Of a DNA stretch of 64,000 nt, positions 8,153 to 15,953 are shown one piece after another (the stretch's first letter is position 1; every line of letters starts with the position of its first letter). A program made the position numbers and the translations under genes. The notes beneath the pieces were generated by a model. It was not told where the DNA came from. It made no database searches and was given only the letters and a program-made list of their open reading frames with translations. The DNA is from an uncultured Veillonellaceae bacterium (GTDB lineage: Bacteria > Bacillota > Negativicutes > JARBTT01), in contig CAWDTA010000002.1 in NCBI GenBank assembly GCA_963805085.1, forward strand, positions 640,001 to 704,000. Reading direction: 5' to 3'.

Positions 8153-9184
8153 TTATTTATTTACTACTCCTATATTTACTTGTGGCGTAAGACGAAAATA
8201 GTAATCATCCTGTATGGGATAATATTTAGGAGAACATTTATCCAGAATCGGAAAATCATATCCATTATGTAAATCCTTTAGAGAATCCAGATATACATCA
8301 GACAGTTGAAAATCGAGGTATACTTTATCACCATATTCAGGCTCTTTAAAGGTACCGCTTTCTCTGCGTTTTTTTAATTCAATCGTATCTCTTTTTTCTA
8401 CATTTCCGTGCTTTTCAATACAAAATGTTTCCCAATGTATTGAACCCATGCCTTCCGCGTTCATCCATTCATGAGCCATATCTGTTTGCGCTAATAAATT
8501 GCCTCCTGTACTCAAATTAAGATCAGGGAAATGTGCCATTTCAAACAGTTGGTTTTCTAATCGTTGATATCCAGGCAACATAATGCATCTATCATTACCA
8601 TAAAATAAAATAATTTTACCAGTAGGTTTTGTTACTCTCACAAATTCTTTGAAAATCAATCGTGGATCAGTAAAAATTCCGGGACATAGTGTATCACAGC
8701 ACCATATCCAATCAAAGGTGTTATCTGGAATCGTACATAATTTACCTTCTTCGTCAACATATTGCAAAGGCTTTTGATTAAAATCAGATGTTGCTACTTT
8801 AACACTCAGTTCAGGATAAGTACTATTTAAATATTTCGCTTTAACATTTCTTGCATATTCAACATGCTCTGGTGTGTAGTCAAGACAAAGAATTTCTCCA
8901 TTGTTCTTTATTCCTGAAGATAATAAAGGAAGAATTCCTCCTGGGCCACATCCTGCATCCAGACCATAGCTTCCTTTAGGCAAATTCGCCAATTCAATAG
9001 CTTTACTATATCCCTTCCACATCATACTGTTAAAAGAAAGCATTTGTTTTACATAGGGAGATAAAGTTACTTTCTCGTTATAAATTGTATTTTGAACAAC
9101 GTTTGCCGTCTTTGTAAAGCCTTGATTCTGCATAACCTTTTTATCAGAAAAATAATAATTTGTCCTTCTTATATTTGTTAACAT
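8153..9184 (-). CDS. Class I SAM-dependent methyltransferase
   Basis: LDAGCGPG motif I, IPDNTFDWIWC, EFVRVTKPTG. Confidence 0.85.
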   Translation of the reverse strand: MLTNIRRTNYYFSDKKVMQNQGFTKTANVVQNTIYNEKVTLSPYVKQMLSFNSMMWKGYSKAIELANLPKGSYGLDAGCGPGGILPLLSSGIKNNGEILCLDYTPEHVEYARNVKAKYLNSTYPELSVKVATSDFNQKPLQYVDEEGKLCTIPDNTFDWIWCCDTLCPGIFTDPRLIFKEFVRVTKPTGKIILFYGNDRCIMLPGYQRLENQLFEMAHFPDLNLSTGGNLLAQTDMAHEWMNAEGMGSIHWETFCIEKHGNVEKRDTIELKKRRESGTFKEPEYGDKVYLDFQLSDVYLDSLKDLHNGYDFPILDKCSPKYYPIQDDYYFRLTPQVNIGVVNK

Positions 9185-9568
9185 TTTTCCACCTCATATA
9201 CTCTAGAGTACAAGCTCTATTTTTTTAGAAACCCATTTCCTAACCAGAAAAACCTTACTTATGTTCGAAATCACAAATTTTTAGGGCATGTTTACCGAGA
9301 GACTACTTCTATACAATAGGCTTTGTATTACTTCAATGTATCACACACCTCCAATGCCATTTTTTTATTTTACCTCCCCTTTCTTTATCCGTACAAAATC
9401 TCTAATTTTTAGCTAATTGTCCATATCATTTTGGGATTACTAGCAAGCGATATCGCTTAACATCAGCCGAAAGCTCTCCCGAATAACCGAGTGTTTTCAT
9501 ATTTTTCATTTCTGATTTCTAAAAAATAAGCTTTAAAGCCAGTTTTTGCACTACAAAAGTTAATTTGA

Positions 9569-10684
9569 TTAAAATAAATTTATATACTTCATATCTATCT
9601 TTAAATTTTTAAAGAGAAAAGGAAAACAGGTATTGATTATAAACTTTATTTTATAGTTTTCATATTCATACCAAATAGATTTAATGTAAAAATATAACGC
9701 TTTGAATCTATGTAATTTTTTACACACAAAACCTAATGTAAAATACTTTTTAGCAATTTGTTTTTGATAAGCCTTGATGCATGCATCTTTATTTGCTTTC
9801 ATAGTAGCATTTGTGATATATTTAATTCTATTTTTCCTGAATTTAACATGATAATATCCGCAAAAAACCAACTTATTAACAATAGATTTATCATTTATCA
9901 TTTTATCGAAATCAATATTTCTTCGATCAACAAAAAAGTACAGGTTGTCATTATTTCCCTGATTATAAATAAAATGACAGTCTCGTATTAAACAAATTTT
10001 ATGATTCATTATAACTCTTGTTGCAAAATCAATGTCCTCGCTTCCCCAGAATTCCTCATTAAATAGACCTACTTCCTTAATGAGTTTACTATTAAATACC
10101 ATAGTACATATGTGATAGCAGTATAATTCATTTATGACTGCATATTCATAAAAGTCTTCATCGAAAAATATCACATTATCTATTACTTTAGCGTTCAAAT
10201 CGTTAATTGCTTTTACTAATTTATTTGATTCATCAGGCTGATCAAAAGTGCGGTATAACTTGTCTGCTTTTCTTTCCATTACTAAAGAAAAGCAGACATT
10301 TAAATTATACTTTTTTAAGGTTTCAACACTTTTACTTAAATGATGTTCTACCCATTCATCATCTGAGTCTAAAAATGCTAGATAATCTCCTGATGAATTA
10401 ATAATTCCATGATTTCTCGCCCCTGAAACTCCCTTACACCGCTGATTAAGAAAATATCGTATTCTCTTATCAGTTTTAATATAATTATCAACCAAATCTT
10501 TAGTTTCATCAGTGCTATTATCATCTACTATTATTAATTCCCAATTGGTGTATTTTTGTTTAATAACCGAATTAATAGCTTTTGTTAGAGTATATGCTCT
10601 GTTATAAGTTGGTATAATTATACTAACAAGTGGGTCTTTGATATTTTGTTCCATACTAAAATTATTCTCTTGACTTGCATTCAT
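9569..10684 (-). CDS. Glycosyltransferase family 2
   Basis: VSIIIPTYNRA, IVDDNSTD, GVSGARNHG, FLDSDD, EDIDF. Confidence 0.92.
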   Translation of the reverse strand: MNASQENNFSMEQNIKDPLVSIIIPTYNRAYTLTKAINSVIKQKYTNWELIIVDDNSTDETKDLVDNYIKTDKRIRYFLNQRCKGVSGARNHGIINSSGDYLAFLDSDDEWVEHHLSKSVETLKKYNLNVCFSLVMERKADKLYRTFDQPDESNKLVKAINDLNAKVIDNVIFFDEDFYEYAVINELYCYHICTMVFNSKLIKEVGLFNEEFWGSEDIDFATRVIMNHKICLIRDCHFIYNQGNNDNLYFFVDRRNIDFDKMINDKSIVNKLVFCGYYHVKFRKNRIKYITNATMKANKDACIKAYQKQIAKKYFTLGFVCKKLHRFKALYFYIKSIWYEYENYKIKFIINTCFPFLFKNLKIDMKYINLF

Positions 10685-10749
10685 TTTATCGCTCTCCTTT
10701 GATAACACTACAAACTCCCACTCATGCTTTAGTTCTGAAAAAATTCCAA

Positions 10750-11214
10750 CTAAAAAACGCTGCCAGCATCCTTATAACCTTGCCTTAGACCTTTACCTGC
10801 ATTACATTTAAGTTTATCAGGATTAAACAACATATAATAAACATTCTGTGCATGCTCTCTAGTACGTTTATCCGCAAGCATTGCTAGCTCGGAATTACTA
10901 GAAGTTTCGGACTCATGGACAAAAACCTCAATAATATGTTTGGATGTCATAAGCTGAGCCATAATCAGACCCAGTGAAGCCTCATGAGCACACTGCCTAT
11001 CAATCGACTCAGGCCCTGGCATAGCCAACGCCATAACAATATCACATTTCTCGTTTTCCATTAGGCGCTTACAAGCAACTGGAAGATCTTTCATTCCGGG
11101 AACCGTTTGTCTAATAATGTTAACTGAAGATGTAAGTTTCCTTAACTCAGAAACTGCCGACGAAGCCATATCATAGCGTGCAAACGTAGTATCAATTATA
11201 CCTATTTTCTTCAT
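10750..11214 (-). CDS. ribC: Archaeal-type (lumazine-synthase-fold) riboflavin synthase
   Basis: [56 protein letters not shown] match the methanogen RibC signature; RBS AAAGGA before ATG 11214. Confidence 0.9.
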
Positions 11215-14287: not shown

Positions 14288-14345
14288 GATTTTCCCCACA
14301 ATCGCTATTGCATTACTCTTACTTATTTTAAACCTATAAGTTTCC

Positions 14346-14948
14346 CTACACCATCTTAAGTAAGTGATGACATCGCTCTTTCTTAGTTTTTAAATACTGT
14401 CTATTATGAAGATTAGGTGAAATTTCGATTTGCTCTACTTTGATTTCAAAGCCACTATCGACTAACGCTTTTATTTTATCTGGATTATTCGTCATTAATC
14501 GTAATGATCGCATTCCTAATTCTTTTAATATGTATACAGCAAAACTATAGTCTCTTGAATCATTGGCAAATCCAAGTTTTATATTTGCTTCAACAGTATC
14601 TAAGTTAAATTTTTGTTGAAGATAATAAGCATTTGCTTTATTAAATAACCCGATTCCTCTCCCTTCTTGTCTAAGATAAATTAAGACACCTAATTTTTCA
14701 TCAGCAATTCTTTTCATTGCTTCTCTTAATTGGTTCATACAATCACATCTCAAGGAAGTAAATACCTCACCAGTAATACATTCAGAGTGAATTCTTACTA
14801 ATGCACCTTTTTTTAATGTTTTTATATTACCCATTGATAATACAATCGGATTACTCCCATCAAACAATTCAAATACTTGGGTCTTAAACTCCCCAAACTC
14901 CGTAGGCAGTGTAAATTTTTCTGAAGACCTCATAACCAATTTTTCCAT
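14346..14948 (-). CDS. ribA: GTP cyclohydrolase II (monofunctional)
   Basis: RIHSECITG...RCDC, RQEGRGIGL, DTVEAN, LMTNNPDK, YLKTK. Confidence 0.95.
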   Translation of the reverse strand: MEKLVMRSSEKFTLPTEFGEFKTQVFELFDGSNPIVLSMGNIKTLKKGALVRIHSECITGEVFTSLRCDCMNQLREAMKRIADEKLGVLIYLRQEGRGIGLFNKANAYYLQQKFNLDTVEANIKLGFANDSRDYSFAVYILKELGMRSLRLMTNNPDKIKALVDSGFEIKVEQIEISPNLHNRQYLKTKKERCHHLLKMV

Positions 14949-15000
14949 TTTTATTAATCTCCTCAACATAGGTTTTCATCTCTAAAAAATTCATCCTTAG

Positions 15001-15813
15001 TCATATATTTAATATTTGTCTTGCTTCTATTGGTGTCGCAATCTCCCTCCCCATCTCCACAGAGTATTTCGTAATACGTTCTACTAATTGTGCATTACTT
15101 GATGCTAATTCATGATATTTATAATAAACATTATCCTCAAAACCCGTTCTTACATGTCCCCCCGCTAAGATACCAGCCAAATTCATAGGCAATTGACTAC
15201 TCCCTACCGCAGCAACAAACCAGTTGCTGTCTTTAGGAATACTTTCAATTAAAAACAATAGATTTTTTACACTAGCTGGTATACCACCATTAACCCCCAG
15301 AACAAATTGAAAATTTAAAGGTCCTTTCACTATGCCTTTTCGTGCAAATTCAACAACATGTCCTATCATTCCAAAATCGAATATCTCAAATTCGGGTCTA
15401 ATTTGGTGCTTGCCAATTTCTTCAGCCAATTTTAAAATAAAGCTTGGTGTGTTAATGAATACCTTACCATTTCTATTAAAAGACCCTGGTGTAAAAGATG
15501 CTATTTCTGGCATACATGTTAATGGTTTTAAACGGCTTGAATCATCTCCGTCCACATTAAAACCTGTGGTTGTTAGACAGATTAATATATCAGTTTTTTC
15601 TCTAATTCGTTCTAATATTTCTCGATATACCTCTACACGCTGACTTGGTGTTCCATCGCACTCTCTTGCATGAATATGGACAATAGATGCTCCTGCATTC
15701 CGGCAGTCATACACAGATTGAGCTATTTCTTTGGGTGTTATCGGTAAATTAGGATTATTCTTCTTTGTTGTAATGCCTCCATTAATTGCGGCGGTAACAA
15801 TCAACTTATTCAA
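15001..15813 (-). CDS. Beta-keto acid cleavage enzyme (BKACE/Kce, DUF849)
   Basis: PITPKEIA, AGASIVHIHAR, PEFEIFD, GGHVRTGFEDN, SNAQLVER; start codon uncertain (15813 or 15822). Confidence 0.92.
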   Translation of the reverse strand: MNKLIVTAAINGGITTKKNNPNLPITPKEIAQSVYDCRNAGASIVHIHARECDGTPSQRVEVYREILERIREKTDILICLTTTGFNVDGDDSSRLKPLTCMPEIASFTPGSFNRNGKVFINTPSFILKLAEEIGKHQIRPEFEIFDFGMIGHVVEFARKGIVKGPLNFQFVLGVNGGIPASVKNLLFLIESIPKDSNWFVAAVGSSQLPMNLAGILAGGHVRTGFEDNVYYKYHELASSNAQLVERITKYSVEMGREIATPIEARQILNI

Positions 15814-15953
15814 CCTTATCACCTTCTATACTTTTTTTATTTTTCTTACACTAATGTAGAAAATTGCCCATTAATAATTCAATATGAACATCGCCTTAAT
15901 ATTAATTTACCATATTTACTAATTAATGCAAATAATTATATAACTTGACCCTC

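Follow-up and report, generated by a model that had tools for sequence, protein, structure and literature searches.

We examined a 64,000-nucleotide (nt) stretch of contig CAWDTA010000002.1 from an uncultured Veillonellaceae bacterium (hereafter the window; all positions are forward-strand coordinates within it), in which eight open reading frames (ORFs), all on the minus strand, form a cluster at positions 8153-15822 that brings genes of riboflavin synthesis together with other enzymes. Family profile scans gave the order as a beta-keto acid cleavage family enzyme (BKACE), RibA, a first methyltransferase (MT1), a GGT-family protein, a RibH-like protein, an archaeal-type riboflavin synthase (RibC), a GT2-family glycosyltransferase and a second methyltransferase (MT2; Table 1). 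Content, order, direction and coordinates agree with an earlier note that had taken the cluster for an operon making a methylated, glycosylated flavin or lumazine analogue, and Pfam and NCBIfam scores confirmed the families it named. Intergenic gaps measure 31-65 nt except at three places, namely the MT1/GGT overlap, a gap of ~142 nt between RibH and RibC when the true RibC start is used, and the wider GT2-MT2 gap. None of the eight ORFs is disrupted, and each spans its family model in full; GC content at third codon positions is 0.19-0.25 in seven of them and 0.33 in RibC, and the cluster as a whole has a GC content of ~32% in a genome of 37%. Within positions 7000-17500 we obtained no Rfam match with E < 0.47, and none to the flavin mononucleotide (FMN) riboswitch family RF00050, as the note had also held; its statement that the cluster is without ribB was likewise correct, the ribB of the assembly (4.2 Mb in 5 contigs, 83% complete by marker count, no masked stretches) being found outside the window, on contig C3. 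A motif scan of the region returned promoter-like sites at chance level (39 versus 39.3 expected) and 7 terminator-like sites versus 3.5 expected, none of them informatively placed.

Table 1 Features of the flavin gene cluster and its surroundings, with matches in the Streptomyces camelliae plasmid locus (protein identity, BLAST E value).
Feature	Position	Strand	Characteristics	S. camelliae match
Upstream RAYT-like unit	15954..16932	-	Y1 transposase ORF 15996-16853; 36-38-nt terminal inverted repeats; PF01797 54.6 bits	
BKACE/DUF849 beta-keto acid cleavage family enzyme	15001..15822	-	273 aa; PF05853 323 bits, full length	36%, E 9e-50, full length
RibA, monofunctional GTP cyclohydrolase II	14346..14948	-	200 aa as called (longest ORF to 14969); PF00925 191 bits	42%, E 5e-40
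MT1, class I S-adenosylmethionine-dependent methyltransferase	13442..14287	-	Methyltransf_31 82.8 bits; 3' end overlaps GGT start by 32 nt	24%, E 3e-17, over 289 residues (full length)
RosG-type GGT-family Ntn hydrolase	11857..13473	-	538 aa; PF01019 421 bits; GDTT nucleophile motif kept	30% (RosG), E 2e-72
RibH-like protein, lumazine synthase fold, catalytic residues substituted	11357..11818	-	PF00885 121 bits	
Archaeal-type riboflavin synthase RibC	10750..11214	-	154 aa; TIGR01506 210.4 bits versus cut-off 100.55	44-45% (RibE2), E 9e-45
GT2-family glycosyltransferase	9569..10684	-	371 aa as called; PF00535 130 bits	
MT2, weakly recognisable class I methyltransferase	8153..9184	-	343 aa; Methyltransf_11 47 bits; set off by a 384-nt gap	
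Downstream RAYT-like unit	7135..8133	-	Y1 transposase ORF 7191-8099; 43-nt inverted repeats, 95% complementary; PF01797 59.6 bits	
Population-variable segment (GT2 to most of BKACE)	9302..15631	.	~6.3 kb absent in contigs from three studies	

Two of the genes score as bona fide enzymes of the first and last steps of riboflavin synthesis. RibA exceeded the cut-off of TIGR00505 (213.5 versus 205.85 bits) and is 46-49% identical to the C-terminal domain of RibBA from relatives in the class. The true start of RibC, MKKIG at 11214, is the one used by all homologues and yields the 154-residue protein rather than a 200-residue ORF; its best matches are Thermoplasmata-type proteins with 60-73% identity. 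The cut-off of TIGR01506 was passed in one of the 401 genomes sampled from the class, namely the source genome, and a protein search recovered an archaeal RibC from none of 40 relatives; RibC was therefore acquired. A scan of genome contigs with RibC returned four loci, all archaeal.

Between GGT and RibC, which stand ~0.5 kb apart, lies the RibH-like gene. The earlier note had called this RibH divergent, and its active site is indeed rewritten: in Bacillus subtilis numbering, F22 is replaced by Ile, H88 by Ser, R127 by Lys and K135 by Tyr, so that the motifs read RIH for RFN, SPSF for TPHF, IKAAG or IIATG for IERAG, and NYG for NKG. We aligned the protein with four canonical Negativicutes RibH, three archaeal RibH and its seven nearest outside homologues (40-44% identical), and within this alignment the changes were confined to the RibH-like protein and a 93%-identical relative, in which the R127 column holds Ile; the seven outside homologues and the four canonical Negativicutes proteins kept the canonical residues. 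The RibH-like protein is only 33-37% identical to RibH of the class and 23-30% to the archaeal neighbours, and it barely passes TIGR00114 (91.9 versus 84.6). Phe22, His88 and Arg127 are named as conserved catalytic residues of lumazine synthase in PMC12871164. On this alignment, the RibH-like protein thus no longer has the residues that normal lumazine synthase catalysis requires.

The GGT-family protein has an N-terminus that is not signal peptide-like and scored 338 bits against TIGR00066, below the cut-off of 357.85. The closest homologue from another lineage shares 41% identity with it, and a search of the ESM Atlas returned generic GGT clusters only. Phylogenetic analysis placed it more precisely. 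A 61-row tree (LG+G4) joined it with RosG of Streptomyces at a support of 97, and a 42-row tree (LG+C20+F+G4) recovered the split of window GGT, RosG and a third protein, P0180, at a support of 100, with RosG and P0180 united at 100. P0180, rich in lysine and asparagine, evidently stems from a low-GC source; the clade is thus not explained by base composition. Furthermore, several motifs are restricted to these three proteins, namely P-[IV]-N-T in place of the T-[ML]-H-T of the other homologues, LGFG[AS]G, a GQxQWN motif without proline and, close to the C-terminus, GLT. P0180 was encoded on a 7082-nt Logan contig; in the trees no protein stands closer to Streptomyces RosG, with which it is 36% identical. 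As a separate observation, the longest contigs of P0018 (an archaeal-type RibC) and P0204 (an ordinary GGT homologue) both measure 8609 nt, and the two may share one contig.

The association of these families extends beyond the window. A tblastn search of 72,556 plasmid records with the 154-residue RibC matched a single record, the linear plasmid NZ_CP115301.1 of Streptomyces camelliae HUAS 2-6. On one strand of this plasmid, a class I methyltransferase, a BKACE (annotated '3-keto-5-aminohexanoate cleavage protein'; its gene shares 4 nt with that of the methyltransferase) and RibA are tightly packed as one unit at 103172-105558; divergent from it run a GGT (RosG), an archaeal-type riboflavin synthase (RibE2), RibX, the substrate-binding protein RibY and RosB. 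Five families (methyltransferase, BKACE, RibA, GGT and RibC) thereby recur within 5 kb, and the synteny search that the earlier note had proposed thus found these five families together beside rosB. The RibH-like protein, GT2 and MT2 had no BLAST match in this locus or in the 34 kb that follow, where rosC lies, and no window protein matched the rosC region. A gene annotated as GT-A/GT2-family lies 1.2 kb from the S. camelliae methyltransferase and gave no BLAST match to the window GT2. No separate RibH was found on the plasmid. In a tree of RibC, the window protein and RibE2 attached to the same subgroup, with supports of 78-88 only.

The Streptomyces genes beside this unit have been described before. 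The accessions of RosG, RibE2, RibY and RosB from HUAS 2-6 match Table 1 of PMC11039241, whose main text defines a rosB cluster of rosG, ribE2, ribX and ribY along with rosB that is conserved in roseoflavin producers, notes that HUAS 2-6 is without RosA, likens RibE2 to archaeal riboflavin synthases and only guesses at a role for RosG in glutamate supply; ribA, GTP cyclohydrolase and aminohexanoate appear nowhere in that main text. In the literature that we searched, which included neither supplements nor Kissling et al. 2020 or the paper on the S. davaonensis genome, BKACE, RibA and the methyltransferase are not linked to rosG-ribE2, and the gene set is unreported outside Streptomyces; Figure S9 of PMC11039241 and Kissling et al. 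2020 may show the methyltransferase-BKACE-ribA genes.

Taking together the observed enzyme families, their order, the RosG-like GGT and the variation among strains described below, we give roughly even chances to the reading that the core (BKACE, RibA, MT1, the RosG-type GGT, the RibH-like protein and RibC) is a horizontally acquired, dispensable accessory flavin module, a rosB-less variant of the rosG-ribE2 gene set of the Streptomyces roseoflavin/8-aminoriboflavin locus. In such a module, RibA and RibC would raise the flux entering and leaving the lumazine/riboflavin branch, while BKACE, through acyl-CoA/beta-keto acid chemistry, MT1 and the RosG-type amidohydrolase would make or process a partner or derivative; the RibH-like protein would more likely bind a lumazine-type ligand than make 6,7-dimethyl-8-ribityllumazine, and the output would be a specialised metabolite derived from flavin or lumazine rather than housekeeping riboflavin. 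The S. camelliae co-occurrence, the RosG clade and the rewriting of RibH together speak more for a dedicated function in the flavin branch than for a chance mosaic. To this extent the earlier reading of the cluster as a flavin-analogue operon held up, and the methylated and glycosylated product that it had proposed has no support. A precedent for housing a BKACE homologue and a lumazine synthase copy within a single cluster directed at flavins comes from the flavophos genes of Burkholderia (PMC12871164). GT2 and MT2 are without a BLAST counterpart in the S. camelliae locus, and MT2 persists in variants lacking the core, which makes it separable; MT2 therefore probably lies outside the core, the membership of GT2 in the functional unit is uncertain, and MT2, perhaps with GT2, may be a neighbour rather than a member. 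At scores under the respective cut-offs, GT2 shows similarity to polysaccharide glycosyltransferases, TuaG and PglI among them. For MT1 the top NCBIfam match was BioC (84 bits, under its cut-off), and a PDB sequence search with MT1 and MT2 returned generic class I methyltransferases only and no RosA structure. The suggestion that a carbon unit derived from BKACE replaces DHBP (3,4-dihydroxy-2-butanone 4-phosphate) is at present pure conjecture; the window and Streptomyces BKACEs are non-orthologous, and the active-site feature of the former, described below, is the majority state of its family.

Several observations weigh against a shared flavin module. The gene set was found only once outside the window's own lineage. 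The BKACEs of the window and S. camelliae are not sisters, since the latter falls in a 9-row clade (support 98) that excludes the former; the S. camelliae methyltransferase matched MT1 and another methyltransferase of the source genome equally well, as a generic enzyme would; and the join of the window GGT with RosG in the 61-row tree involves long branches. Because the window proteins are closer to homologues outside such modules than to their Streptomyces counterparts, and because the BKACEs are non-sister, common descent of the whole set is not shown. BKACE, methyltransferase, GGT and GT2 genes occur in none of the four archaeal RibC loci. A metagenome scan with the GGT alignment, which missed the 50-kb contig of a close relative described below, returned 80 ordinary GGT loci, none with BKACE, RibA or RibC; among these were one weak methyltransferase match and one RibH match, the latter belonging to a canonical ribE-ribBA-ribH-nusB operon as judged by ORF sizes alone. 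RosB of S. camelliae, the 8-demethyl-8-aminoriboflavin-5'-phosphate synthase, found no match at E 1e-3 in a tblastn search of the whole assembly (~83% complete) and is absent from the cluster; PepM and tailoring enzymes of known flavin chemistry are likewise missing. Even the Streptomyces gene set has no known product, and the literature consulted offers RosG no more than a guessed role. By these comparisons, the shared set is in part homologous at the level of clades (GGT and perhaps RibC) and in part recruited independently (BKACE); even then, the recurrence speaks for a functional link.

The absence of RosB also bears on the product. The RosB step is oxygen-dependent, so a RosB route is unlikely in an anaerobic host, and, with no RosB found, roseoflavin itself would not be the product. 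An importer of the RibXY type is likewise missing from the cluster, with only weak matches of 42-46 bits elsewhere in the genome.

Natural variation shows how the cluster fares in related populations. At least six of the eight cluster genes have mates of ≥90% identity on a metagenome contig of 50,232 nt. RibC is the most conserved gene between the relatives, with 3 of 154 residues changed as against 90-93.5% identity for the others; RibH is 93.5% identical, and GT2 is intact. RibA and MT1 had no mate at ≥90% identity on this contig, and MT2 starts 55 residues later. Two further genes count against a maintained module: BKACE was called as a 119-residue piece with an out-of-frame start, and GGT stops after 410 residues with a frameshift-like tail. 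We also compared positions 7000-17000 with Logan contigs from four sequencing runs, each of a different study (shares 0.05-0.10; uncovered parts are uninformative); no RNA data set was among the runs listed as carrying the region. In runs X1, X5 and X7, sequence up to position 9301 was cleanly joined to position 15632; the shorter side of the joint spans 90 nt, and the two sides have no letters in common there. These contigs keep MT2 at 98.5% identity together with a 90-nt remnant of BKACE, and contigs from three studies thus go without the core. The remnant (15632-15721) corresponds to BKACE codons 34-64, the region of the His-x-His metal site. One of its ends adjoins 9301 directly and the other adjoins unrelated sequence, which implies at least two rearrangements. 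In run X2, by contrast with the deletion contigs, 22 of 30 bins were covered at ~90-95% identity, with no listed indel in coding regions and two indels in the BKACE-RibA spacer. The core is dispensable in nature, and the broken genes of the relative together with the core-less contigs indicate that selection on it is weak or conditional.

As the earlier note had stated, two RAYT units bound the cluster: Y1/IS200-type ORFs (PF01797) lie on both flanks in units of ~1 kb, the two flanking copies being nearly identical. Their transposases scored 73.4 bits (downstream) and 69.1 bits (upstream) against NF047646 (REP_Tyr_transpos), under its cut-off of 80, while Pfam Y1_Tnp was passed, and both carry a C-terminal extension resembling a helix-turn-helix. 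Genome-wide, ~24-25 tblastn matches to the unit were found. Positions 1-22000 of the window hold four co-oriented RAYT-like units, 95-99% identical, that alternate with unrelated cargo, comprising arabinose genes, the flavin cluster, a subtilase and an IS200 element.

These data raise the alternative that the cluster is a decaying mosaic, in which unrelated acquired genes piled up between RAYT copies without joint function and the resemblance to Streptomyces is partly coincidental. Such an origin would fit the position of the cluster in a RAYT array with unrelated cargo, the relative with broken BKACE and GGT and a shortened MT2, the deletion variants in three studies, the loss of catalytic residues in the RibH-like protein (with an Arg127 column that differs even between 93%-identical relatives), the chance level of promoter-like sites, and the differing nearest relatives of the genes, archaeal for RibC and various bacteria for the others. 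A heap of decaying genes would not, however, be expected to keep eight ORFs intact and full length at ~32% GC, with uniform third-position composition across seven genes and an overlap between MT1 and GGT; run X2 carries most of the cluster without a listed coding indel, and a recurrence of five families with a RosG-clade GGT is unlikely by chance. We consider the mosaic quite unlikely.

The remainder of the assembly bears on a second alternative, plain riboflavin supply, in which the cluster would act as a patchwork replacement or booster that relies on RibB encoded elsewhere and furnishes either the vitamin or a secreted electron shuttle, with BKACE, MT1, GGT, GT2 and MT2 as passengers or helpers. 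Within the (incomplete) assembly, RibA, RibH-fold and riboflavin synthase genes occur in the cluster alone, which favours this view. So does a monofunctional ribB at C3:143530-144105, which stands behind an FMN riboswitch (ribB with its leader, 143530-144377); its product is 45-51% identical to RibBA proteins of the class, one from the same genus included, is probably a xenologue judging from these comparisons, and presumably resembles the enterobacterial type. The genome has two FMN riboswitches, the other of which (C2:1534407-1536300) precedes the S-component of an energy-coupling factor (ECF) transporter (PF12822) that is likely a riboflavin importer. Moreover, RibD_C or eubact_ribD matches above cut-off were not found in the assembly, itself incomplete, whereas RibD_C was present in 22 of the 25 genomes searched, accompanied at a distance of ~2.6 kb by a canonical RibH, and the complete riboswitch-ribD-ribE-ribBA-ribH operon of a same-genus genome was not found in the source assembly. 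The literature also reads Streptomyces RibE2 as a riboflavin booster.

The argument from only copies nevertheless fails on the state of the assembly. It lacks ribF, present in eight of eight relatives, together with a block comprising a polC-sized gene, nusA, infB, truB, rpsO, ribF and pnp that is seen in a same-genus contig (gene names in the block follow from ORF sizes and from the order in relatives). In relative G004, the rib operon lies ~22 kb from ribF, so that block and operon fall within ~25 kb, and almost all of a 38-kb segment (C7:130000-168000) is without a counterpart in the source assembly. With an essential block missing, the absence of ribD and of the canonical operon is most simply an assembly gap rather than a loss; gene absences in the source genome are not readable as losses, and the missing ribD carries the risk of being an assembly artefact. 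For the same reason, the lack of ribF and its essential neighbours, we rejected the idea of a riboflavin auxotroph that had lost its rib operon. Plain riboflavin supply is further at odds with a RibH-like protein lacking Phe22, His88 and Arg127, with a route left incomplete where no RibD was found, with the absence of an FMN riboswitch from the cluster, and with BKACE, methyltransferase and GGT genes that are interleaved with the rib genes, in one case by overlap, and that recur with RibA and RibC in Streptomyces. We regard it as doubtful.

BKACE is present in the assembly as a single copy. Against the Kce equivalog NF052387 it scored 332.3 bits, below the cut-off of 382, and among solved structures it comes nearest to the Cloacimonas Kce 2y7d, relative to which it carries Phe in the column of the catalytic Tyr. 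It matched Kce with 234 bits and the 9zsc group (annotated '3-keto-5-aminohexanoate cleavage protein'), which we tentatively take to be BsfD, with 140 bits. The nearest plasmid-borne BKACEs, from Priestia and Vibrio, stand in unrelated gene contexts. We considered the Phe-for-Tyr exchange as a BsfD-like signature and rejected it, since Phe occupies this column in 44 of 66 family rows and is the majority state.

BsfD belongs to flavophos biosynthesis, and a flavophos-like antimetabolite offers a further interpretation: BKACE would make a beta-dicarbonyl mimic of DHBP that poisons lumazine synthase, the RibH-like protein would be a sequestering immunity protein, and the extra RibA and RibC would sustain flavin supply. 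In the bsf (flavophos) cluster of Burkholderia, a BKACE homologue serves to make a lumazine synthase inhibitor and a lumazine synthase copy lies in the same flavin-targeting cluster; the R127T and H88K/K131N mutants of lumazine synthase have very low activity yet protect against the inhibitor, consistent with sequestration (PMC12871164). The window likewise pairs a BKACE with a RibH homologue lacking catalytic residues. The flavophos lumazine synthase, by contrast, keeps Phe22, His88 and Arg127, and the Streptomyces counterpart locus is without a RibH copy; the window BKACE is nearer to Kce than to the 9zsc group, and its Phe is common in the family. PepM (PF13714) and other phosphonate genes were absent from the incomplete assembly, and a flavophos-type phosphonate is unlikely without PepM. 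Taken together, these points make the flavophos-like interpretation very improbable.

A further reading would treat the RibA-BKACE-methyltransferase unit, the RosG-type GGT and RibC as an autonomous pathway that Streptomyces placed beside rosB. The RibA product and a BKACE carbon unit would then yield, through dismutation of the RibC type, a flavin or lumazine analogue, or riboflavin made without RibD, RibB and RibH; no RosB step would be involved, and the RibH-like protein would serve in ligand binding or immunity. We consider this scheme unlikely.

Roseoflavin is the best-known natural riboflavin antivitamin. Around rosB, roles have been assigned only to rosB, ribE2 and ribXY, that of rosG being guessed. 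That the same odd combination turns up in an unrelated anaerobic soil bacterium whose assembly yielded no rosB suggests a function in flavin metabolism that belongs to these genes themselves. The cluster provides a concrete hypothesis and a second, smaller test system for roseoflavin research, as well as a signature for mining flavin-related clusters outside actinomycetes.

Finally, we compared the locus with known systems. In toxoflavin-type pathways, a RibD-like domain protein (ToxE) stands beside GTP cyclohydrolase II, and such a domain was found neither in the cluster nor in the assembly. With the canonical operon (FMN riboswitch-ribD-ribE-ribBA-ribH), the window cluster shares GTP cyclohydrolase II, a lumazine synthase fold and an encoded riboflavin synthase activity; it differs in having no riboswitch, ribD or ribB, in a riboflavin synthase that is archaeal and pentameric rather than of the Lum_binding type, in a RibH that is distant from RibH of the class and has lost its catalytic residues, and in the three non-rib enzymes interleaved with these genes. 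The ribC-ribH(-ribA) pairs of Thermoplasmata and Micrarchaeia metagenome-assembled genomes resemble it in RibC (48-62% identical), in an adjoining RibH (four of four loci) and in RibA (one of four), whereas their gene order is reversed, the window RibH is nearer to bacterial RibH, and BKACE, methyltransferase and GGT genes are missing there. The flavophos bsf cluster likewise combines a DUF849/BKACE enzyme, with Phe at the catalytic Tyr position (a state common across the family), and a lumazine synthase homologue in one riboflavin-pathway cluster; the window has no PepM, Pmm synthase or PsfC, and bsf, as described, has no RibA, GGT or riboflavin synthase and a lumazine synthase with intact catalytic residues. 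The rosB cluster with its methyltransferase-BKACE-ribA unit differs from the window locus in RosB and RibXY, which the latter lacks, in gene order and strands, in a BKACE that is not orthologous, and in the RibH-like gene, which is peculiar to the window. It comes closest nonetheless, as another accessory locus of horizontal origin in which a RosG-clade GGT stands beside an archaeal-type riboflavin synthase with a RibA/BKACE/methyltransferase unit adjoining.

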